A stretch of DNA of 8,976 nt from a virus (taxonomy: Duplodnaviria; Heunggongvirae; Uroviricota; Caudoviricetes), in the IMG/VR virus record IMGVR_UViG_2778261459_000009, positions 1 through 8,976 of that record; one strand, written 5' to 3'. The notes beneath the pieces were generated by a model. The model was not told the origin of the DNA, ran no database searches, and was given only the letters and a program-made list of their open reading frames with translations. The first letter of the stretch is position 1. Each line of letters begins with the position of its first letter. This document shows, in pieces, positions 1 through 8,976 of this stretch. The translations under genes were made by a program, and so were the position numbers.

Positions 1-294
1 TCAGAACTCCATCTGGATTTGTTCAGAACGCTCGGTTGCCGCCGGGCGTTTTTTATTGGTGAGAATCGCAGCAACTTGTCGCGCCAATCGAGCCATGTCG
101 TCGTCAACGACCCCCCATTCAAGAACAGCAAGCAGCATTGAGAACTTTGGAATCCAGTCCCTCTTCCACCTGCTGATCTGCGACTTATCAACGCCCACAG
201 CTTCCGCTGTCTTCTCAGTTCCAAGCATTGCGATTTTGTTAAGCAACGCACTCTCGATTCGTAGAGCCTCGTTGCGTTTGTTTGCACGAACCAT
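1..294 (-). CDS. cII: Transcriptional activator CII (97 aa), lambda-type
   Basis: The - strand ORF from the Met at 294-292 reads MVRANKRNEALRIESALLNKIAMLGTEKTAEAVGVDKSQISRWKRDWIPKF...ERSEQIQMEF, which matches lambda CII as I recall it. The stop is the complement of 1-3. The upstream sequence on the - strand is TAAGGAAATACTTACAT before the ATG. The longer track ORF (start 354) is an in-frame upstream extension with no ribosome-binding site. Confidence 0.93.
   Translation of the reverse strand: MVRANKRNEALRIESALLNKIAMLGTEKTAEAVGVDKSQISRWKRDWIPKFSMLLAVLEWGVVDDDMARLARQVAAILTNKKRPAATERSEQIQMEF
29..56 (+). terminator. Intrinsic terminator-like hairpin plus T-tract on the strand antisense to the cII 3' end; consistent with the 3' end of an OOP-like antisense RNA whose 5' end would lie left of the window
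   Basis: Stem about 29-35 (cgctcgg) pairing with 42-48 (ccgggcg), including one G-U pair, then tttttta at 49-55. The position opposite the cII C-terminus matches my recollection of where lambda oop terminates. Confidence 0.5.
272..285 (+). promoter_or_regulatory. CII-binding direct repeat TTGC-N6-TTGC, the -35 region of a pRE-like promoter directing transcription on the + strand toward cro and cI
   Basis: ttgcgtttgtttgc, with TTGC at 272-275 and 282-285, lies inside the 5' end of cII on the opposite strand, as in the lambda pRE arrangement. Confidence 0.55.
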
Positions 295-328
295 ATGTAA
301 GTATTTCCTTAGATAACAATTGATTGAA

Positions 329-350
329 TGTATGCAAATAAATGCATACA
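329..350 (-). other. Perfect 8-bp inverted repeat (tgtatgca / tgcataca) with a 6-nt spacer in the cro-cII intergenic leader, in the tR1 / cII-leader position
   Basis: The arms are 329-336 and 343-350 with aataaa between them. It sits between nutR and the cII ribosome-binding site. Confidence 0.4.
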
Positions 351-373
351 CCATAGGTGTGGTTTAATTTGAT

Positions 374-405
374 GCCCTTTTTCAGGGCTGGGATGTGTAA
401 GAGCG
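374..405 (-). promoter_or_regulatory. nutR N-utilisation site: boxB hairpin plus boxA
   Basis: On the - strand, boxA CGCTCTTAC is the complement of 397-405, and boxB GCCCTGAAAAAGGGC is the complement of 374-388, a 5-bp stem with a GAAAA-containing loop. It lies just downstream of cro, as in lambda. Confidence 0.75.
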
Positions 406-413
406 GGAATGTC

Positions 414-1770
<1,357 letters not shown>

Positions 1771-1820
1771 TCCCCACCTCAATCTCGATAACCAAAAAAC
1801 AAACTATTTTCCGTTTAAAA

Positions 1821-1834
1821 ACAATGGAGTTTGT
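1821..1834. promoter_or_regulatory. Operator OL3 (434-type 14-bp site)
   Basis: ACAATGGAGTTTGT, ACAA-N6-TTGT. Confidence 0.65.
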
Positions 1835-1851
1835 TTTTCATACCCCTTTTT

Positions 1852-1865
1852 ACAATATTTCTTGT
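1852..1865. promoter_or_regulatory. Operator OL2 (434-type 14-bp site)
   Basis: ACAATATTTCTTGT. Confidence 0.7.
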
Positions 1866-1894
1866 TTACAACATACAATCTTTCTTGTAATTTT
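1865..1894 (+). promoter_or_regulatory. Putative pL promoter (-35 TTTACA about 1865-1870, -10 TAATTT about 1889-1894)
   Basis: The hexamers are about 18 bp apart, overlap OL1 and OL2, and lie upstream of nutL and N on the same strand. The assignment is by eye only. Confidence 0.35.
1875..1888. promoter_or_regulatory. Operator OL1 (434-type 14-bp site), overlapping the putative pL
   Basis: ACAATCTTTCTTGT. It is the site closest to N. Confidence 0.7.
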
Positions 1895-1933
1895 AAGCCA
1901 TCAGCAGGACGCACTGACCACCATTGAAGGTGA

Positions 1934-1964
1934 TGCTCTTAAAAATTAAGCCCTGAAGAAGGGC
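1934..1964 (+). promoter_or_regulatory. nutL: boxA-like element plus boxB hairpin
   Basis: tgctcttaa at 1934-1942 is boxA-like. GCCCTGAAGAAGGGC at 1950-1964 is the lambda nutL boxB (5-bp stem, GAAGA loop). It lies about 160 bp upstream of N. Confidence 0.8.
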
Positions 1965-2122
1965 AGCATTCAAAGCAGAAGGCTTTGGGGTGTGTGATAC
2001 GAAACGAAGCATTGGCCGGAAGTGCGAATCCGGATTAGCTGCAAATGAGCCAATCGTGGGGTGTTTTCGTTCAGGACTACGACTCACACACACCACCAAA
2101 GCTAACTGACAAGAGAATCCAG

Positions 2123-2446
2123 ATGGATGCACAAACACGCCGCCGCGAACGTCGCGCAGAGAAACAGGCTCAATGGAAAGCAGCAAATCCCCTGTTGGTT
2201 GGGGTAAGCGCAAAACCAGTTAACCGCCCTATTCTCTCGCTGAATCGCAAACCGAAATCACGAGTAGAAAGCGCACTGAATCCGATAGACCTTACGGTGC
2301 TGGCTGAATACCACGAACAGATTGAAAGCAACCTGCAACGTATTGAGCGCAAGAATCATCGAGTTTGGTATAGCAAGCCAAGTGAGTTCGGTATAACTTG
2401 TCAAGGAAGACAAAAGGTTAAAGGGAAATCCATTCCATTGGCATGA
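2123..2446 (+). CDS. N: Antitermination protein N (107 aa), lambda-type, with arginine-rich boxB-binding motif
   Basis: MDAQTRRRERRAEKQAQWKAANPLLVGVSAKPVNRPILSLNRKPKSRVESALNPIDLTVLAEYH... closely matches lambda N as I recall it. The track ORF start at 2045 is an upstream in-frame extension. Confidence 0.92.
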   Translation: MDAQTRRRERRAEKQAQWKAANPLLVGVSAKPVNRPILSLNRKPKSRVESALNPIDLTVLAEYHEQIESNLQRIERKNHRVWYSKPSEFGITCQGRQKVKGKSIPLA

Positions 2447-2454
2447 GGTACGTA

Positions 2455-3324
2455 ATGAAGAAAATTGATTACAAGTCCATACCAAAACCAATAGACTCAG
2501 CATCAGAGCGAAAAAAACACAAAAAAGAGGCTGAAAAATTAGCAAATTATATCAGTTTTATTAGAAACAATGCTCACGGCGATGGCGACAGGAAGTTGCT
2601 TTCAGATGCCCGGACCCAAGCGTTCAGTATACTTCGTAAGCAGATGCAATATCGTCTTCATCCTGGCTACATAATTGAAATTCGCCCGACTGAAAGACAA
2701 TTGTTCTTATTAAACTCTGTCTTTGACTTTGTAAACGTAGTTGGAGATCTTATCGACAGGTCTGTAGATAAGGCTCCTGATACAAATAGTTTTCTTCTAA
2801 CAAATAAAGAATACTTATATGGTAAATTTGGTATAAACGGATGGCAAAAATATGTACGATTCTTACGTGCATTCGTTGATGCGTATAAAAATTCCGACAT
2901 GATTTATACATATTTGCCTGGTGGTGATAATTGTACGCTTTCGGCAGACAATAGAATATTCATACCTATACTTGGTCTTGGGCTGATTAATGCAGTAAAT
3001 GAAAGAGATGTTATAATTGTTAAGCAGTGGCGAAAGCATGAGGGATATAGATATCTGCCATGCTTTGATATATTAAAAATACAGAATAAATTCTATGTAA
3101 AAATTAAATATAAAGAAGATGTTTTCTTCCTCAGAAAAAACAAAGATCTTTTACAAGAACTTTCTGGGACAATAGATGTCATCGTAGGTTCTAGGTTTAT
3201 AAAAGAACTGAAAGAAAGCAGGTCTTTCTCTCGTGTAGAGATAAGCGAGTCAGAGTTATGGGGTATATCAAATAATCCTGTAAACCACGCTCACCAACGA
3301 AATCCAAACAAAAAGTGGTCATAA
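2455..3324 (+). CDS. AT-rich cargo gene of unknown function (289 aa) immediately downstream of N, in the position of lambda sieB/ral; candidate superinfection-exclusion or defence protein
   Basis: A 293-codon ORF begins at 2443; the likely start is the ATG at 2455, with a GAGG ribosome-binding site at 2446-2449. The base composition is visibly lower in GC than the flanking N and cIII regions, with long runs of AAA/ATA codons. I see no transmembrane segment and no motif I can name. A hairpin terminator follows directly. Confidence 0.75.
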   Translation: MKKIDYKSIPKPIDSASERKKHKKEAEKLANYISFIRNNAHGDGDRKLLSDARTQAFSILRKQMQYRLHPGYIIEIRPTERQLFLLNSVFDFVNVVGDLIDRSVDKAPDTNSFLLTNKEYLYGKFGINGWQKYVRFLRAFVDAYKNSDMIYTYLPGGDNCTLSADNRIFIPILGLGLINAVNERDVIIVKQWRKHEGYRYLPCFDILKIQNKFYVKIKYKEDVFFLRKNKDLLQELSGTIDVIVGSRFIKELKESRSFSRVEISESELWGISNNPVNHAHQRNPNKKWS

Positions 3325-3349
3325 CCCGCTCAGGCGGGTTTCATTTTCA
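3323..3349 (+). terminator. Rho-independent terminator after the AT-rich gene
   Basis: Stem aacccgc (3323-3329) and gcgggtt (3334-3340) with loop tcag, followed by the T-rich run tcattttc. Confidence 0.6.
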
Positions 3350-3466
3350 CGCAAACAACAGAATAAACACTGCACTGTGTATTCATTCCAACGAGTGAAT
3401 ACACGGAGCAATGTCGCTCGTAACTAAACAGGAGCCGACTTGTTCTGATTATTGGAAATCTTCTTT

Positions 3467-3491
3467 GCCCTCCAGTGTGAGGGCCTTTTTA
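3467..3491 (+). terminator. Second terminator-like hairpin upstream of cIII (tL-like)
   Basis: Stem gccctc (3467-3472) and gagggc (3479-3484) with loop cagtgt, followed by cttttta. Confidence 0.5.
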
Positions 3492-3556
3492 TATGCATAC
3501 CAATAACGCTTCATTCGAGGCGTTTTCGTTATGCAATCAAATATAAGGAGTTACCC

Positions 3557-3691
3557 ATGATGCACTTTCAGCTCGCGGGTAGCGGCGTCATGTCCGCTTT
3601 CTACCCGCACGAATCTGAATTATCACGCCGAGTTAAACAATTAATCAGAGCAGCAAAGAAACAACTGGAGGCGTTATGCGCAATGAAATAG
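3557..3691 (+). CDS. cIII: CIII-like protein (44 aa), a putative FtsH-inhibiting lysogeny regulator
   Basis: MMHFQLAGSGVMSAFYPHESELSRRVKQLIRAAKKQLEALCAMK shares the AGxxVxxxPxESxLxRxxxxL pattern of the lambda CIII central amphipathic helix. An AAGGAG ribosome-binding site lies 6 nt upstream of the ATG at 3557. It is in the expected position downstream of N. The track ORF start at 3452 has no ribosome-binding site. Confidence 0.75.
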   Translation: MMHFQLAGSGVMSAFYPHESELSRRVKQLIRAAKKQLEALCAMK

Positions 3692-3828
3692 CAATCAATC
3701 ACCAGATGCTTCGTGCTGCACAGAACAAAGCAGTAATAGCCAGATTTATTGGTGATTCAAAAATGTGGCTTGAAGCAAATAAAGCGATGAAATCAGCTAT
3801 CAACCTTCCGTGGTATCGCAGGAAATGA
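3676..3828 (+). CDS. kil: Kil-like small protein (50 aa), a possible host cell-division inhibitor; not present in the supplied ORF track
   Basis: ATG at 3676 with a GGAGG ribosome-binding site 5 nt upstream, overlapping the cIII 3' end. The translation is MRNEIAINHQMLRAAQNKAVIARFIGDSKMWLEANKAMKSAINLPWYRRK. The FIGD-KM--EA core resembles my recollection of lambda Kil, and the gene follows cIII as kil does in lambda. Confidence 0.5.
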   Translation: MRNEIAINHQMLRAAQNKAVIARFIGDSKMWLEANKAMKSAINLPWYRRK

Positions 3829-3909
3829 GTTTTACAGACAACTGGTCAGACGAAGAATTCATTCGTCAGATGAACAAAATGCTCAATCAGCACAAAGAAC
3901 AGGAGAAAG

Positions 3910-4221
3910 ATGATGATTCTGACTCTGAATGATAAGCGTGAAATATCGCAAATAATCGCAAGTTTTACTGATGAAGATTACGAACGAATCAACAGTGAAG
4001 TTGATCGCCTCTGCAAACGTTGCGACCCAATAAGCGAAATGCTTCGCTCATATAAACCAGATGAACATACTAAGGATGCTATCGACTGGCTGGAAGATGA
4101 TGACTGTAACTATCAGGAAAAAGCCGCTGAATGGTTCTGGGATGCAATAACCGAAAGAGTTAAGGCTGAATATGCCTTCGCAATATTTAAACGCAGACAC
4201 ATTTTTGGAGAAGCTGCATGA
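3910..4221 (+). CDS. Acidic hypothetical protein (103 aa) with a CxxC pair, immediately upstream of recT
   Basis: An AGGAG ribosome-binding site lies 4-7 nt before the ATG at 3910/3913. The stop overlaps the recT start (ATGA at 4218-4221). The protein has about 24 Asp/Glu against about 15 Lys/Arg, and includes CKRC. Confidence 0.65.
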   Translation: MMILTLNDKREISQIIASFTDEDYERINSEVDRLCKRCDPISEMLRSYKPDEHTKDAIDWLEDDDCNYQEKAAEWFWDAITERVKAEYAFAIFKRRHIFGEAA

Positions 4222-5120
4222 GCAATATCGTTGAATTCGTTAAACAGCAAGAGCAGTTATTCTGCGGAGCATTGACTGAACAGACGGTGACATGGGCTAA
4301 GGAAAGCCAGTTTGCAATTCAGTATTTCCAGAAAAACGATTACCTGGCTAAAACAGCACTGGCAAATCCAACCAGCGCACAGAACGCCATCATCAATGTT
4401 GCGGCGATCGGCATCACCTTAAACCCGGCCAGCAAACTGGCTTATCTGGTTCCTCGCGACGGCATGGTGTGCCTTGATATCAGTTACATGGGATTACTTC
4501 ACCTTGCACAGTCGACAGGATCAATTAAGTGGGGGCAATGCAAACTGGTGTACTCAAACGACACCTATGAATCAAACGGCCTTGATTCAGCACCAACCCA
4601 CAAATACAACGCATTTGGTGAGCGAGGCTCTATTGTTGGTGGTTATTGTACGGTTAAAACAGCAGATGGTGACTACCTCACTGAAGAAATGAGTCTGGCA
4701 GAAATTAAAGCTGTGGAAGCAACGAGCAAGGCAAAGAATGGACCGTGGAAGACATTCTGGGAAGAGATGGCGCGTAAAACAATAGTTAAACGCGCCAGCA
4801 AATACTGGCCTAAAGCCCAGCGACTGGATAATGCCATTCACCTGCTTAACGAAGATGAAGGTATGCATCAGGAACCAGTTATGCCGCACAAATCAGAGGA
4901 AGATATCCGCGAAGATGAACGGAAACGCCAGCAGGAAATTATGGAAAAAGCACAACTTCTTTGTGATGAAATGGTTCAGGCAGAAAACATGGATGATTTG
5001 AAGCGATATTTTGCAGAAGCATATCGCCTGACATCTGGAATGAAATTGCAGCAGAACGTACAAGCCATTTACATAGAATGCAAAGCGAAACTGGAGGTTG
5101 CCAGTGAGCAAACTGTATGA
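4218..5120 (+). CDS. recT: RecT/Red-beta family single-strand annealing protein (300 aa)
   Basis: NGPWKTFWEEMARKTIVKRASKYWP closely parallels the NGPWVTHWEEMAKKTAIRRLFKYLP segment of E. coli Rac RecT as I recall it. The overall length and layout fit the RecT family. Confidence 0.85.
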   Translation: MSNIVEFVKQQEQLFCGALTEQTVTWAKESQFAIQYFQKNDYLAKTALANPTSAQNAIINVAAIGITLNPASKLAYLVPRDGMVCLDISYMGLLHLAQSTGSIKWGQCKLVYSNDTYESNGLDSAPTHKYNAFGERGSIVGGYCTVKTADGDYLTEEMSLAEIKAVEATSKAKNGPWKTFWEEMARKTIVKRASKYWPKAQRLDNAIHLLNEDEGMHQEPVMPHKSEEDIREDERKRQQEIMEKAQLLCDEMVQAENMDDLKRYFAEAYRLTSGMKLQQNVQAIYIECKAKLEVASEQTV

Positions 5121-5586
5121 AATTGCCAATGAATACGCAAAATTGATGGATTCAGATTTAGAACCAGAGATGATTGCTGACACAATAGAAGGCATGGAAG
5201 GAGAATTTACCGATAAAATAGAGCAACTTCTTTCCGTCATTAAAAATGAATCTGGTTATGCTGAACGCCTCAAGGAAGAGGCAAAGTCACTGAATGAGCG
5301 AGCCGCAGTAATTCAAAATAAGATTGACAGCATCAAATCATATATAGCGTCATCGCTTGAAATGGTTGGCAAGAAAAATATTCGAGCAGGTATTCACCAG
5401 GTAACAATCCGCAAACCGTCAGAAACTGTAGAAATCATCGACTCAAGCGCCCTTCCTCCTGAATACGTTGAGTTTGAAACGACAATTAAAGCCGACAAAC
5501 TGGCAATCAAACACCAACTAAAAGCAGGAATAAATATCCCCGGCGCTCAACTCAAAGTTGGGAAACCTTCACTTCTTATCAAATAA
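5104..5586 (+). CDS. Gam-like / Siphovirus Gp157-family protein (about 160 aa), a putative host-nuclease inhibitor partner of RecT
   Basis: Likely GTG start at 5104 with a GGAGG ribosome-binding site at 5093-5097; the track gives a TTG at 5098. It has a coiled-coil-like N-terminus and a C-terminal part that resembles Mu-Gam/Gp157-type proteins found next to annealing proteins. The family assignment is from memory and is tentative. Confidence 0.55.
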   Translation: MSKLYEIANEYAKLMDSDLEPEMIADTIEGMEGEFTDKIEQLLSVIKNESGYAERLKEEAKSLNERAAVIQNKIDSIKSYIASSLEMVGKKNIRAGIHQVTIRKPSETVEIIDSSALPPEYVEFETTIKADKLAIKHQLKAGINIPGAQLKVGKPSLLIK

Positions 5587-5597
5587 CGGTATCGCCT

Positions 5598-5912
5598 ATG
5601 AAAAAGACTCCATGGGAGAAATGGGAAGTCGATTTCTTGCGCGAAGTAGCGGCGACAATGCCAGTTGAAGTTATCGCTGAAAAACTGGAAAGGACTGAAA
5701 AAGCAGTAATGGCGAAAGCAACAAGGATTGGAGCTGACATTGTTAGCCGACTTCGTGGAAGACGCTGGACAAGAGCCGAAGTATCACTTTTCGGTAAGTT
5801 CTCCGCAGAAGAAATAGCAATTGCAACCTGCCGCTCAATTTATTCAGTAAGAGCTATGCGATACAAGCTAAAAAAACTCGATGAAGAAAGAGCAGGCATA
5901 CGAATAAATTAA
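5598..5912 (+). CDS. Hypothetical protein (104 aa) with two tandem roughly 35-aa helix-turn-helix-like repeats
   Basis: The internal repeat is [37 protein letters not shown] against [37 protein letters not shown], with a shared W..EV..L......EEIA..L.R(T/S)..AV.A pattern. Confidence 0.6.
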
Positions 5913-5928
5913 CAAAGAGGAATTTACC

Positions 5929-6093
5929 ATGAGAGGACTTGCATACAATCCCGGCATTCTTCCGGCAGAAATGATTATTCGCCAACGCGTAAAGCCAATG
6001 CCATCGAGAGAGGAATTGCTTAAGAGAAATTCTTTTCCGTCAGTGAATCAAAACAAATATCTGAATGCGATGTGGCGGAGTGGGAAGAAATGA
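5929..6093 (+). CDS. Small hypothetical protein (54 aa), not in the supplied track; translationally coupled to the next gene
   Basis: ATG at 5929 with an AAAGAGG ribosome-binding site 7 nt upstream. The stop TGA at 6091-6093 overlaps the ATG at 6090-6092 of the downstream gene (ATGA). Confidence 0.45.
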
Positions 6094-6524
6094 AACAAAT
6101 GTCACTAATTGAGATGGATGGATTTCTGAAAGGTAGATGCATCCCACGAGATTTAAAGGTTAACGAAACAAACGCTGAATATCTGGTGCGTAAATTTGCT
6201 GAAGCGGAGGCCAAGTGCGCGGCGCTGGCAGCGGAGAATGCGGCAATGCATGAAACTATTGAAGCCGTTCGGAGTGTTGCGGATAACTCCAGTGGAATTG
6301 CCGGATGGCATTTGAATGGCGATATCGCTACATGGGAAGAGATTCTTCCTGAAATTAACGATATCGAAACCACAGCCACCGACGCTTTCCTGGCTGAAGT
6401 ACGGGCGAAGGGCGTGGAGATGGCTATGGAGCATATGCAGTCGAGCGGTTCGTTTTCATTTGGAGATTGCTACATATCACTTAACGAGTTCGCCGCCCAG
6501 CTTCGCAAAGGAGACAACCAGTGA
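6090..6524 (+). CDS. Hypothetical protein (144 aa)
   Basis: [15 protein letters not shown]..., with an Ala/Glu-rich helical centre. The track start at 6072 is a GTG; the ATG at 6090 is the better start because of the coupling overlap. Confidence 0.65.
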
Positions 6525-6745
6525 GCGGAAAAAGAATGACTAACAGAGAGCTTGTCGATGCCGCGATTAAGCTTGCTGGTGATTTTTATTCAATGATGGG
6601 GTACACGCATCGCCCAGGCTTCAAATATTGGGAGTCTCCTCACCCGCAAGAGCAACAGGTATTTCAAATGGCCTGCCGTGCTTTTGAGGTTATTCGCGGT
6701 TCTGATGTGATGGACGCCGTTGCCGACTTGGAGGATGAAGAGTGA
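6521..6745 (+). CDS. Hypothetical small protein (74 aa), GTG start
   Basis: The GTG at 6521 overlaps the upstream stop (GTGA). An AGGAG ribosome-binding site at 6509-6513 lies 7 nt upstream. Confidence 0.6.
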   Translation: MSGKRMTNRELVDAAIKLAGDFYSMMGYTHRPGFKYWESPHPQEQQVFQMACRAFEVIRGSDVMDAVADLEDEE

Positions 6746-7311
6746 ACAAGATTGACTATCAGGCACTGCATGAAAAGGCAGAGAAAGCAACGTGGGGAGA
6801 CTGGGACTCATATAAACCACACCGTGGCGCACGTGGTTATGAGGTCCGACTAAGTAGTCAGGCCATTGCGCAACACGTTCTGAAAAACAACGCTGAATTT
6901 ATTGCTGCCTTTAATCCAAAGGTTGCTTTGGCACTACTGGATGAACGGGAAAGAAACCAGCAATACATCAAACGCCGCGACCAGGAGAACGAGGAAATTG
7001 CGCTAACGGTAGGGAAGCTGCGTGTTGAGCTGGAAGCCGCAGAGGAGCGCATTGCAGAACTGGAAAGCAACGAAGTCCGTGAAGTCGGAAATCAGTTTCT
7101 TGTTGTTCGCCATCCTGGGAAAACTCCTGTCATCAAGCACTGCACTGGTGACCTGGAAGAGTTTCTGCGGAAGTTAATCGAACAAGACCCGTTAGTAACT
7201 ATCGACATCATTACGCATCGCTATTACGGGATTGGCGGTCAATGGGTTCAGGATGCAGTTGAGTATCTGCATATGATGTCTGACGCTGGCATTCGCATCA
7301 AAGGAGATTGA
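6742..7311 (+). CDS. Ea22-like (ead/Ea22 family) early-region accessory protein (189 aa), GTG start
   Basis: The GTG at 6742 overlaps the upstream stop (GTGA). A GGAGGA ribosome-binding site lies 6 nt upstream. The N-terminus IDYQALHEKAEKATWGDW and the central coiled coil resemble prophage Ea22-like proteins as I recall them; this assignment is tentative. Confidence 0.55.
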   Translation: MNKIDYQALHEKAEKATWGDWDSYKPHRGARGYEVRLSSQAIAQHVLKNNAEFIAAFNPKVALALLDERERNQQYIKRRDQENEEIALTVGKLRVELEAAEERIAELESNEVREVGNQFLVVRHPGKTPVIKHCTGDLEEFLRKLIEQDPLVTIDIITHRYYGIGGQWVQDAVEYLHMMSDAGIRIKGD

Positions 7312-7312
7312 T

Positions 7313-7798
7313 ATGACCACTTTCACCGACAAAGAAATGATTAAAGAAATCAAAGAACGCATAGGCAGCCTGGACGCTCGAGACAATATTGAGCGCCGTG
7401 CTTATGAAATTGCTCTGGCATCGCTGGAAGCAGAGCCGGTGGCGTGGAGGGTAACATTCACGCAAATTGACCGTGAATATAACACGTTCACTGGTATGTA
7501 TTCTGACAAAGCAGAAGTCGAACGGTGGGTGCGGCTGCATAAAGCATGTAATTTTCGGGCAGATATAACACCGCTTTACACCGCCCAGCCAGTTCCGGTA
7601 ACTCCGGATGGTTGGATTCCGGTAAGCGAAAGGATGCCGGAACCTTATGAATACGTTCTTGTAACTGATGGTTTTGATGGCTGTGAGGTTATGCGTGTTA
7701 ATACAGATGGCTACTGGGGGCCAGCAAAGAGTTTATATCCAGGTAGTATTACCCACTGGATGCCACTGCCAGCAGCACCGCAGCAGGAGGTGAAGTGA
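7313..7798 (+). CDS. DUF551-domain protein (161 aa)
   Basis: The C-terminal region DGWIPVSERMPEPYEYVLVTDG...GYWGP...ITHWMPLPAAP matches the W..V.E.LP...VLV....W....THWMPLP signature of DUF551. An AAGGAG ribosome-binding site lies 6 nt upstream of the ATG at 7313. Confidence 0.75.
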   Translation: MTTFTDKEMIKEIKERIGSLDARDNIERRAYEIALASLEAEPVAWRVTFTQIDREYNTFTGMYSDKAEVERWVRLHKACNFRADITPLYTAQPVPVTPDGWIPVSERMPEPYEYVLVTDGFDGCEVMRVNTDGYWGPAKSLYPGSITHWMPLPAAPQQEVK

Positions 7799-7986
7799 GT
7801 ATGAGTGCATCACTTATAACCGCCTTCAATCAAAGTGCAAATCCAAGCAATGAGCAGGTTGTTGTGTTCGGCTGGATTGCTGAGTATTTCGAAAGCATTT
7901 TCGACGATGAATCCGCTAGGTATTGCAGGAATATTTCTGAATCACTCAAAAATCAGGTTTCTGCTCAACAGGTGGTGAAGTCGTGA
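7795..7986 (+). CDS. Hypothetical small protein (about 61-63 aa)
   Basis: The GTG at 7795 overlaps the upstream stop, with AGGAGG just upstream. An alternative ATG lies at 7801. Confidence 0.5.
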   Translation: MSMSASLITAFNQSANPSNEQVVVFGWIAEYFESIFDDESARYCRNISESLKNQVSAQQVVKS

Positions 7987-8201
7987 GCAAGCACATCATC
8001 AAATATGACTATCGAGAGGGAGTTAAACTCCCTAAGCACGAGATTGAGACATGGTGCGGTCATCGGCCAGGGTCATTCGAATGGCTTTTTCAGGATGCTC
8101 AGCATGCGCTATTGAGCATTGATCAGGGAACGCTGCTTGTTCCTTGCAAGAATTGTCTGGCAGCAATCATCAAAACGGCGCAGGAGGTTAACCGTGGCTA
8201 A
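7983..8201 (+). CDS. Hypothetical small protein (72 aa) with a C-x-H ... C-x2-C arrangement, a possible zinc-binding fold
   Basis: The GTG at 7983 overlaps the upstream stop (GTGA). The translation contains ETWCGHRPG and VPCKNCL. Confidence 0.55.
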   Translation: MSKHIIKYDYREGVKLPKHEIETWCGHRPGSFEWLFQDAQHALLSIDQGTLLVPCKNCLAAIIKTAQEVNRG

Positions 8202-8478
8202 CCTGCAACTTGCCGTCAACGGTGAATACTTCGATGCCATGATTAGCGGAGAGAAAACGGAAGAGTATCGCCTGTGTAATGACTACTGGAATAAGCGAAT
8301 TATGTTCCGTGAGTATGACCGCCTGATTATCACAAAGGGATATCCGAAGCGCGACGATTCCAGCCGCAGAATTGATGTTCCGTATGACGGATATGAAATC
8401 AAGACAATCACACATCCGCACTTCGGTGATAAACCGGTAAAGGTGTTCGCGATAAAGGTGAATATAGGCAATGAATAA
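8194..8478 (+). CDS. ASCH-like (DUF3850-type) domain protein (about 94 aa)
   Basis: GTG at 8194 with an AGGAGG ribosome-binding site 6 nt upstream. The N-terminus ANLQLAVNGEYFDAMISGEKTEEYRLCND parallels the ...EYF.A..SG.KT.E.R.ND pattern of phage ASCH/DUF3850 proteins. The track ORF start at 8119 is an upstream extension through the preceding gene. Confidence 0.6.
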   Translation: MANLQLAVNGEYFDAMISGEKTEEYRLCNDYWNKRIMFREYDRLIITKGYPKRDDSSRRIDVPYDGYEIKTITHPHFGDKPVKVFAIKVNIGNE

Positions 8479-8550
8479 CAATCCTCGCACTCGCGGGGAT
8501 TTCTTTTATCTGAACTCGCTACGGCGGGTTTTATTTTATGGAGATGATAA

Positions 8551-8718
8551 ATGCACTTCCGAGTCACAGGTGAATGGAATGGAGAGCCATTCAACAGAGT
8601 TATCGAAGCAGAGAACATCAATGACTGCTATGACCACTGGATGCTATGGGCGCAGATAGCACATGCAGACATAACCAATATTCGAATTGAAGAACTGAAA
8701 GAACACCAAGCCGCCTGA
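8551..8718 (+). CDS. Small hypothetical protein (55 aa), not in the supplied track
   Basis: ATG at 8551 with a GGAG ribosome-binding site 7 nt upstream. The translation is MHFRVTGEWNGEPFNRVIEAENINDCYDHWMLWAQIAHADITNIRIEELKEHQAA. The stop sits inside the terminator hairpin that follows. I prefer this to the overlapping track ORF 8471-8659, whose translation is low-complexity. Confidence 0.45.
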   Translation: MHFRVTGEWNGEPFNRVIEAENINDCYDHWMLWAQIAHADITNIRIEELKEHQAA

Positions 8719-8731
8719 TGGCGGTTTTTTA
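8710..8731 (+). terminator. Rho-independent terminator closing the early-left gene chain
   Basis: Stem gccgcc (8710-8715) and ggcgg (8720-8724) with loop tgat, followed by tttttt at 8725-8730. Confidence 0.65.
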
Positions 8732-8775
8732 TTACCTGATTTGCAGGTTCGATTCCCTATTCGGAGATAGCACTC

Positions 8776-8976
8776 ATGCAACACGAACTACAGCCTGATT
8801 CACTGGTTGATTTGAAATTCATCATGGCCGATACTGGCTTCGGTAAAACCTTCATCTACGACCGGATTAAGTCCGGCGACCTGCCAAAAGCCAAAGTTAT
8901 CCACGGGCGAGCAAGATGGTTATATCGTGACCATTGTGAATTCAAAAATAAGCTCTTAAGCCGCGCCAATGGGTAA
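8776..8976 (+). CDS. xis: AlpA/Xis-family excisionase-like DNA-binding protein (66 aa)
   Basis: DLKFIMADTGFGKTFIYDRIKSGDLPKAKVIHGRARWLYRDHCEFKNKL has the winged-helix pattern of AlpA-type prophage excisionases. The stop codon is the last three bases of the window, which is where an integrase gene would be expected to follow. Confidence 0.7.
   Translation: MQHELQPDSLVDLKFIMADTGFGKTFIYDRIKSGDLPKAKVIHGRARWLYRDHCEFKNKLLSRANG

Follow-up and report, generated by a model that had tools for sequence, protein, structure and literature searches.

Recurring linkers at the gene junctions of a lambdoid early-left operon: probable translational-coupling signals that may double as patches of homology

The junctions between the small genes of a lambdoid early-left operon are probably (we put it at about 0.7) translational-coupling signals which double as short patches of homology for recombination. 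We studied them in a stretch of 8,976 nucleotides, called the window below, from a virus of the Caudoviricetes (IMG/VR record IMGVR_UViG_2778261459_000009, positions 1 to 8,976). We propose that they work in the following way: at each junction a strong Shine-Dalgarno (SD) sequence within the final codons of the preceding gene, together with an overlap of stop and start (ATGA, GTGA or 8 nt), would let the ribosomes which end one gene re-initiate on the next, while the linkers would offer short homology to phage annealing recombinases (here RecT) or to host homologous recombination. A cassette swapped, inserted or deleted at the linkers would then leave both reading frames and the coupling intact. 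We are led to the role as homology patches because a gene-sized indel lies precisely between two linker copies (loci L002 and L004) and because the sequence on the left of the CAGGAGGT core goes with the upstream gene, and the sequence on its right with the downstream gene.

The operon, its genes and their junctions

On its plus strand, the window carries a lambdoid prophage's early-left (pL) operon, which is N-antiterminated and includes a cI-like repressor, N, RecT, Gp157, DUF2737, Ead/Ea22, DUF551, an ASCH-type gene and Xis/TorI. The RecT-family single-strand annealing recombinase (4218-5120; Pfam PF03837, 2.6e-33) is encoded in the same operon and is a candidate enzyme for exchange at short homology. 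Positions 6090-8478 hold a promoter-less series of small accessory ("ea/exo-xis") genes: the consensus scan found no promoter-like site in 5900-8976 (4.4 expected) and no terminator-like hairpin between the packed genes, the first one standing at 8480 and two of them (8480-8531) closing the tightly packed run, so that, as judged from consensus patterns, the genes would share a single transcript. In related loci an ordinary phage integrase lies beyond xis. No Rfam family reached its gathering score anywhere in the window, PADLOC gave zero matches on the other unannotated ORFs, and the small genes at 6521, 7795, 7983 and 8194 had no Pfam match, their matches being PHROGs of unknown function only. 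By megablast, 6000-8976 was covered to at most 52% by the best phage record and to at most 55% by complete E. coli genomes, and its exact gene combination was absent from these matches.

All the genes described here lie on the plus strand. The first one with a GTG start (6521-6745, 74 aa, phrog_4132) has GTG at the aligned position in 29 related loci and ATG in 22; the SD of the alternative ATG at 6536 is weaker (-5.4 vs -8.7 kcal/mol). The Ead/Ea22-like gene (6742-7311, 189 aa; Pfam PF13935, 6.5e-28) also starts at GTG, as do its relatives in 126 loci (ATG in 41), and is itself an internal mosaic, with intragenic similarity breakpoints at about 6804, about 6929 and about 7021-7070. Then comes the DUF551 gene (7313-7798, 161 aa; Pfam PF04448, 1.6e-12), which begins 1 nt past the preceding TGA at an ATG found in 33 of its 35 homologues and breaks the GTG chain: a sequence-only reading of this DNA had counted five consecutive GTG genes, and they are not consecutive. 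For the gene at 7983-8201 (72 aa, phrog_4090), GTG is the earliest possible start of the ORF, there is no in-frame ATG, and the relatives have 15 GTG and 1 ATG at the aligned position. The ASCH-domain-type gene (8194-8478, 94 aa, phrog_625) has GTG as its start, with GTG in 82 related loci, ATG in 20 and TTG in 5. The aligned starts of the relatives thus support the GTG starts at 6521, 6742, 7983 and 8194.

The start of the remaining gene (7795-7986, phrog_23654) is ambiguous, the protein having 63 aa if it begins at GTG 7795 and 61 aa if it begins at ATG 7801. This GTG is just 4 nt from the GGAGG core, and ATG 7801 corresponds to the canonical ATG of linker A (see below), displaced by a 3-nt insertion. 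Phage annotators and PGAP chose ATG 7801 (a 186-nt CDS in loci L001, L003 and L004), and the PHROG profile starts there too. From these comparisons we favour ATG 7801. The GTG codons had been said to overlap or abut the upstream stops, and all five overlap them, the one at 7795 being a doubtful start; the possibility, raised at the same time, that translation begins at internal ATGs applies to 7795 only.

At 6521, 6742, 7795 and 7983, the GTG and the upstream TGA overlap within a 4-nt GTGA, while the GTG at 8194 is overlapped over 8 nt by the upstream gene, whose TAA is at 8199-8201. Further junctions are an ATGA overlap at 6090 and the 1-nt gap at 7313. The spacers between the GGAG(G) core and the GTG measure 7, 7, 4, 7 and 6 nt for 6521, 6742, 7795, 7983 and 8194, in agreement with the 4-7 nt given before for an AGGAGG-like site. 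The duplexes of the five SD sequences with the anti-SD are predicted at -8.7 to -16.2 kcal/mol, and every one of these SD sequences sits inside the last codons of the upstream gene. This anatomy matches that of translational coupling, and it is from the anatomy that we infer the coupling.

Some of the junctions also resemble each other in sequence. The 16-mer CAGCAGGAGGTGAAGT (7781-7796) is repeated with 2 mismatches at 7966-7981, a kind of pair which appeared in 0 of 200 shuffles, and CAGGAGGT occurs at 7784 and 8181 (2 copies vs 0.15 expected). The sequence-only reading had noticed a junction repeat of about 19 bp, its core at a third junction and the similar ends of the upstream proteins (..PQQEVK, ..AQQVVKS and ..AQEVNRG); we recover all of this, except that the second copy of the repeat lies at 7966-7987 and not at 7967-7986. 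The generic pattern GGAGG-N7-GTGA, with 1 mismatch allowed, occurs 4 times in the window vs 1.3 expected, a mild enrichment only. The case depends on the specific linkers and not on a generic spacing between SD and GTGA.

Linkers A and B in related phages

Linker A is a block of about 32 nt, cCAGCAGCACCG-CAGCAGGAGGTGAAGT-GATG, which codes for ..AAPQQEVK followed by the stop. In its canonical form the start is an ATG 7 nt from GGAGG, and the codon just before this ATG is an in-frame GTG. The junctions J3 (7769-7803), J4 (7966-7987) and J5 (8173-8196) are diverged copies of it. J3 reads ccagcagcaccg-CAGCAGGAGGTGAAGT-GAGTATG, where 3 nt have been inserted by comparison with the canonical ..GTGATG; in it lie the perfect 9-nt SD AGGAGGTGA, a complement of the 3' end of the 16S RNA, together with GTG 7795, TGA 7796-7798 and ATG 7801, and its left half is formed by the final 9 codons of the DUF551 gene. 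The RNA of the J3 region does not fold more than its shuffles do (z = -0.21), and we rejected on this ground a structured RNA element or an attC-like site. In J4, CAACAGGTGGTGAAGT-CGTGAG, a GTG replaces the canonical ATG and the stop has moved by one codon; the homologous junction of locus L107 is a canonical linker A, with ATG at the position of the GTG. J5, gcgCAGGAGGTTAACC-GTG, extends to 8201 with its 8-nt overlap and belongs to a sub-type, CAGGAGGTTAACC-[G/A/T]TG, which follows at least 8 different upstream sequences in loci picked by their ASCH gene and not by the motif. The copies of the window are minority variants, in which point changes or the 3-nt insertion leave GTG as the start, and this accounts for the local run of GTG starts.

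In viral contigs, linker A stands between 24 upstream and 30 downstream protein families, in 53 combinations (n = 74 junction-type matches), the families being clusters of the adjacent 50-60 residues, C-terminal for the upstream and N-terminal for the downstream proteins. We used protein clusters since an earlier single-linkage clustering of the 300-nt flanks over-merged the nucleotide sequences. At positions -12 to -1 and +16 to +19, which the search did not fix, the information content is about 0.5-1.6 bits, and it falls to about 0.1 bit outside about -12 to +20. The conserved block reaches at least 12 nt 5' of the SD (GCAGCACCG) and is the same across 24 otherwise unrelated upstream families. 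The third codon positions of the left half carry about 0.5-1.4 bits, slightly less than the first and second ones. We found linker A in 186 cultured phage records, among them 933W, phi80, the mEp phages, epsilon34 and ST104, the annotated features beneath the matches being EaA, DUF551 and Ead/Ea22; its tail is borne by many unrelated folds, including an HNH-endonuclease-like ORF.

Linker B is cgcAAAGGAGGCAACCA GTGAGC. Its copy in the window, J1 (6504-6526, cgcAAAGGAGaCAACCA-GTGA-gc), contains the SD, the upstream stop (6522-6524) and the GTG at which gene 6521 begins. The block of about 20 nt is found after at least 7 different upstream sequences and before homologues either of gene 6521 or of Ead/Ea22; it also stands between hkaH and hkaG in phage HK620, whose annotation has the GTG as the start. 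Both linkers are spread in lambdoid and P22-like phages of Escherichia, Salmonella, Klebsiella and Enterobacter, and both join many unrelated gene pairs. J2 (6730-6745, GGAGGATGAAGA-GTGA) is made of an SD, the stop of gene 6521 and the GTG which opens the Ead/Ea22-like gene. In relatives, at least 6 different downstream genes come after the 3' end of the gene 6521 homologue with J2, and each of them begins at the GTG of GTGA. We did not retain J2 as a specific linker beyond the gene 6521 homologue: its exact 16-mer also matches many unrelated phages, where it is a chance combination of an SD and an acidic tail.

Possible exchange at the junctions and other explanations

In the prophage of E. 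coli LWY24 (L002), what is missing between two linker copies is exactly gene 7795. Its junction is a hybrid of the left part of J3 and the right part of J4, and L004, in which the extra gene is present, matches its flanks at 96% identity. In this one clean case an indel the size of a gene has a linker copy at each of its limits, and it may have come about by deletion or by insertion. In loci which were not selected by the motif, the 8 nt on the right of the core vary with the downstream family (AMI 0.73) and not with the upstream one (0.13), and those on the left vary with the upstream family (0.39, vs 0.21 for the downstream one); the switch falls at the CAGGAGGT core. Distinct similarity end-points lie at most 20 nt from a gene boundary in 37% of cases vs 15.5% expected (about 2.4-fold, p ~1e-7, with counts which are not phylogenetically independent). 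About 60% of the end-points are intragenic, inside g6072 and Ead/Ea22. At the ASCH gene (8194), 35 of the 82 main left ends (43%) stop at the start codon with another type of junction and do not share the linker; this means that the exchanges there did not use the linker A sub-type. The suggestion that the junctions serve as recombination joints is thus upheld in part: the motif is conserved at the module boundaries of related phages (the 53 combinations), where its absence would have spoken against the idea, and the indel of gene 7795 is exact, but most breakpoints fall inside genes.

According to a rival explanation, which we hold to be rather unlikely, the junctions are translation signals and nothing else: illegitimate joints would form at random sites, those at gene ends would be selected (the Hendrix model), and the linkers would not target recombination. 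It would account for the intragenic majority of breakpoints and for the unrelated junction types beside many ASCH genes, and reviews state that boundary sequences are missing from most mosaic joints. Moreover, among the elements which all variants share, the 9-nt AGGAGGTGA is the best conserved, and selection for translation alone could retain an SD core of 8-11 nt, which is all that the variants have in common. It does not predict the conservation of GCAGCACCG, which has no ribosome-binding role, and convergence does not explain it either, since the same block is found in 24 unrelated upstream families. Nor does it predict that the limits of the L002/L004 indel are exactly the two repeats, or that, on the two sides of the core, each half goes with the gene next to it. 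Could the encoded tail, ..AAPQQEVK, be what is kept, with no role of the DNA or RNA? The somewhat lower conservation of third codon positions in the left half points that way, but the tails vary while the nucleotide core CAGG[A/T]GGT stays, and the tail is carried by many unrelated folds; we find this scarcely credible.

It is also very unlikely that the genes begin at internal ATGs and that the GTG overlaps are incidental. This would suit gene 7795, given the start chosen in all its annotated relatives; it is contradicted by gene 7983, which has no in-frame ATG, by the variation between GTG, ATG and TTG at the aligned positions of 6521, 6742 and 8194, and by the weaker SD of ATG 6536. As for a mere resemblance by chance of a few purine-rich junctions, its probability is practically nil: SD-like strings are indeed common, as the mild enrichment of GGAGG-N7-GTGA recalls, but the shuffles, the information content of linker A and the 186 phage records refute it, the same 32-nt block being found in dozens of independent loci. 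We keep coupling signals which double as homology patches as the preferred explanation.

Known systems and significance

Conserved boundary sequences have been proposed to target homologous recombination in lambdoid phages (the Susskind-Botstein/Clark model, in the passages which cite it in PMC3233612, PMC3029335 and PMC2327257). That model (Susskind & Botstein 1978; Clark et al. 2001, HK620) likewise deals with short conserved sequences between unrelated neighbours, in the same phage group and genome region, and HK620 itself carries linker B; linkers A and B do not differ from it in kind. A literature search for linker sequences in connection with HK620 gave no match. Translational coupling through ATGA or GTGA in bacterial and phage operons shows the same 4- and 8-nt overlaps, an SD 6-7 nt upstream and no internal promoters. 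What differs is the local excess of GTG over ATG in the window, because these are variants of one linker with a canonical GTGATG.

Rad52-like annealases (Red-beta, RecT, Erf) are regarded as drivers of mosaicism, and the operon of the window encodes such an enzyme, RecT. Activity of Red and RecET on short or diverged homology has been described, and traces of homologous recombination have been reported at the borders of about half of the lambdoid mosaics (PMC2327257, PMC3945230: Martinsohn 2008; De Paepe 2014). The linkers, as putative substrates, give about 16-32 nt of near-identity amid otherwise unrelated DNA; the annealase studies used other substrates, with diverged homology of hundreds of bases, or with 5-13 bp of microhomology at very low frequency.

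Integron cassettes (attC and IntI) are alike in that small, promoter-less, exchangeable genes are separated by a recurring short element. They differ in that imperfect inverted repeats and hairpins are absent from the linker, which overlaps coding sequence, and in that any exchange would be homologous and not site-specific. No IntI-type integrase was found among the ORFs of the window (19 were scanned with Pfam), recT being the only recombination gene found, and we discarded an integron cassette array for lack of both IntI and an attC-type hairpin. One may still imagine an integrase-free functional analogue of an integron: a few linkers of about 20-32 nt, each with a near-perfect SD, a stop and a start, would be under second-order selection because the phage's own annealase (RecT, Erf or Red-beta) could use them to add or remove accessory genes without loss of frame or coupling, and the mosaic Ea proteins would obey this logic internally, through the in-frame segments RAAMLQG and GNSPVIPDGW. 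We consider this conjecture improbable.

Annotators can rely on the GTG starts at 6521, 6742, 7983 and 8194, and ATG 7801 is the better choice for gene 7795. In engineering, linker A might serve as a joint for recombineering or operon assembly, being a compact "coupling cassette" of natural origin. The finding itself is an ordinary one, already known in kind, and the results on the junction linkers leave the current understanding unchanged. They provide a concrete and quantifiable case for the debate between recombination targeted to boundaries and random illegitimate joints filtered by selection, as both patterns of mosaicism are visible side by side in this one region.

Junctions and start codons in the early-left operon

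The window's plus strand is the early-left (pL) operon of a lambdoid prophage. The minus strand encodes CII (1-354) and a Cro-like HTH protein (414-668); the plus strand carries an S24/HTH repressor (737-1369), N (about 2123-2446, with an N36 peptide motif), RecT (4218-5120), Gp157 (5098-5586) and then a run of small accessory genes. These are DUF2737 (5929-6093), a phrog_614 gene, g6521 (phrog_4132), the Ead/Ea22-like g6742 (6742-7311), DUF551 (7313-7798), g7795 (phrog_23654), g7983 (phrog_4090) and the ASCH-type g8194 (8194-8478, phrog_625), and they are followed by a 55-aa ORF and Xis/TorI (8776 to the end). The same layout is found in annotated relatives, namely phage HF4s and three E. coli prophages. 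Between 5900 and 8976 there is no sigma-70-like promoter match, against 4.4 expected, and the only terminator-like hairpins lie at 8480-8531 and 8708-8727. Hence, we concluded that the genes of the GTG chain are on one polycistronic message. These hairpins, which come after the ASCH-type gene and after the 55-aa ORF respectively, are 5' of xis, and transcription would pass them only with N antitermination.

Two other plus-strand ORFs deserve mention. The first (1366-1770, 134 aa) follows the repressor gene, in the position of rexAB in lambda; it has a hydrophobic, lipoprotein-like N-terminus, matches phrog_2651 (no assigned function) and may function in lysogenic conversion or exclusion. The second (2443-3324, 293 aa), directly 3' of N with an ATGA overlap, is low in G+C (about 33-41%) and matches phrog_12139 over its full length, with no Pfam or PADLOC match. 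At its C-terminal end, 20 residues (..NHAHQRNPNKKWS) match the C-terminus of the PHROG "Nun-like transcription termination factor", and the ORF may serve in exclusion or be a moron.

The sequence-only reading had described five consecutive genes whose GTG start overlaps or abuts the upstream stop, just 3' of a ribosome-binding site. This arrangement is seen at all five starts (6521, 6742, 7795, 7983 and 8194): the overlap with the upstream gene is GTGA at the first four and 8 nt long at GTG 8194, and a Shine-Dalgarno (SD) sequence precedes every one of them, with predicted 16S 3'-end duplexes of -8.7 to -16.2 kcal/mol and spacers from the GGAG(G) core to the start of 7, 7, 4, 7 and 6 nt. The genes are not consecutive, however, as the DUF551 gene, which interrupts the chain, starts with an ATG (7313).

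In comparative analysis, a true start is classically recognised by different start codons replacing one another at a fixed position. We compared each protein with all fetched loci by alignment and noted which codon occupies its start position: GTG and ATG were found 29 and 22 times for g6521, 126 and 41 times for g6742, 15 times and once for g7983 (whose ORF has no in-frame ATG in the window), and 82 and 20 times for g8194, where TTG also occurs 5 times. Four of the five GTG starts are thus supported. For g7795, an ATG lies in frame at 7801, two codons 3' of the GTG; ten of ten homologues carry both codons, and in all annotated relatives, as in the PHROG profile, the start is the equivalent of ATG 7801. 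Since GTG 7795 is just 4 nt from GGAGG, ATG 7801 is the better call. Likewise, for the phrog_614 gene, which is listed with GTG 6072 as its start, ATG 6090 is most likely the true one; it overlaps the stop of DUF2737 (6091-6093) as ATGA; hkaH of HK620 and PGAP annotate the homologous start at this position.

Two linker families

The 16-mer at 7781-7796 is repeated with two mismatches at 7966-7981, and such a pair appeared in 0 of 200 shuffles; the second motif spans 7966-7987. The core proposed for a third junction is also there, CAGGAGGT being present at both 7784 and 8181. We scanned viral contigs with the query CARCAGGWGGTGAAGT and obtained 120 loci, in which about 74 matches lie at genuine gene junctions in temperate phages of enterobacteria. 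Their common longer block, linker A, reads cCAGCAGCACCG-CAGCAGGAGGTGAAGT-GATG; it encodes ..AAPQQEVK*, with a one-base TGA/ATG overlap and an in-frame GTG immediately before the ATG. When the 50 residues adjoining it on each side are clustered, linker A joins 24 upstream and 30 downstream families of unrelated genes in 53 combinations. With one representative per combination, positions -12 to -1 and +16 to +19, which the search left unfixed, hold about 0.5-1.6 bits, and conservation drops sharply at the edges, to about 0.1 bit everywhere beyond. With a 32-nt query, the block came up in 186 records of cultured phages from Escherichia, Salmonella, Klebsiella and Enterobacter (933W, phi80, mEp phages, epsilon34 and ST104 among them), under genes for EaA, DUF551 and Ead/Ea22.

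The junction before g7795 (7769-7803) is linker A with a 3-nt insertion (GTG-AGT-ATG). The one before g7983 (7966-7987) is a variant with three changes: the SD is weakened, the TGA is lost and the canonical ATG has become GTG. The one before g8194 (8173-8196) is the sub-type CAGGAGGTTAACC-GTG. The commonest form among linker-A junctions is the canonical ..GTGATG (41 of 76). The local run of GTG starts therefore reflects minority variants of one shared linker. Copies devoid of a stop occur in three loci (L059, L063 and L083), where the upstream DUF551-type ORF extends 27 codons in frame (..QQEVK-ALEHGMRRY..); they may represent fused genes that arose naturally, or junctions that have degenerated.

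The junction before g6521 (6504-6526) belongs to a second family, linker B, cgcAAAGGAG[G/A]CAACCA-GTGAGC, which follows at least seven different upstream sequences and precedes homologues of g6521 or of Ead/Ea22. The hkaH/hkaG junction of HK620 carries it, and its GTG start was already annotated in the 2001 record. The junction before g6742 (6730-6745) keeps company with the 3' end of the g6521 homologue and is followed by at least six different genes.

Proposed exchange at the linkers

The region 6000-8976 is extremely mosaic; its best coverage is at most 52% by a phage record and at most 55% by a complete E. coli genome. The sequence-only reading had also suggested that the linkers could be recombination joints, and its junctions, checked in relatives, agree with this in part. 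In 160 loci chosen by their flanking genes, independently of the motif, 37 of 100 distinct end-points of similarity to the window are no more than 20 nt from a gene boundary, versus 15.5% expected (binomial p ~1e-7, the counts being phylogenetically non-independent). About 60% of these end-points, subject to the same non-independence, are intragenic, chiefly in the phrog_614 and Ead/Ea22 genes. The main left ends of the ASCH gene lie at 8173-8180 (47), so that the linker is shared there, and at 8193-8195 (35), where the junction is of a different, linker-less type. The mosaic EaA/Ead-type proteins upstream of linker A (e.g. in L041, L071, L117 and L057) have the short internal motifs RAAMLQG.. 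and GNSPVIPDGW..SERMP in common, set between domains that otherwise differ; these motifs look like in-frame domain joints, which fits the intragenic breakpoints.

Among 71 distinct CAGGAGGT junctions in motif-unselected loci, the 8 nt right of the core have an adjusted mutual information of 0.73 with the downstream family and 0.13 with the upstream one, while the 9 nt left of it have 0.39 with the upstream family versus 0.21 with the downstream one. This means that linkage switches inside the core. Moreover, in E. coli LWY24 nothing separates DUF551 from the g7983 homologue but a hybrid junction, made up of the left part of the g7795 junction and the right part of the g7983 junction. The DNA on either side is 96% identical to that in strain YPE10, where an extra gene lies between two linker copies. 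This repeat-bounded indel looks like the footprint expected of recombination between repeats, in either direction.

The main rival explanation is that these sequences are translation signals only, the joints being illegitimate and then filtered by selection. It accounts for the intragenic breakpoints and for the junctions without a linker, but leaves unexplained both the hybrid junction and the 12 nt of non-SD sequence common to 24 unrelated upstream families. That the sequence is kept for the peptide tail it encodes is unlikely, because the tails differ among variants while the nucleotide core is conserved. An Rfam scan of the whole window and a fold of the g7795 junction region found no RNA family or structure.

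In the most likely reading, an SD inside one gene and an overlapping stop and start would couple translation along the message, and the linkers would double as short patches of homology through which RecT-type annealases or host homologous recombination could swap cassettes, leaving frames and coupling intact. The second of these roles is plausible given that Red recombines diverged DNA, that RecET is able to use 5-13 bp and that traces of flanking homology are seen in about half of lambdoid mosaics (PMC2327257, PMC3945230). A nuclease could stimulate local exchange: an HNH-endonuclease-like ORF (..HIDGDKSNP..NLEWVT..) with the linker-A tail ..LPLPAAPQQEVK occurs in locus L076 (around 2047, minus strand of the locus), and HNH endonuclease genes are annotated within this region in some E. 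coli prophages too. We rejected an integron-like system, as neither the window's ORFs nor Pfam scans of 19 of them yielded an integron-type integrase, and there is no attC-like structure.

The linkers correspond to a model of modular phage evolution, that of the "short conserved boundary sequence", plus ordinary translational coupling; PMC3233612, PMC3029335 and PMC2327257 credit this model to Susskind & Botstein 1978 and to Clark et al. 2001. Neither this kind of feature nor its presence in this phage group is new, and even one of the two linkers is already documented, in HK620. The observation itself holds up, and the sequence-only idea of linkers that couple genes and may serve as joints is a reasonable one that the results support in good part, but the concept was known before.
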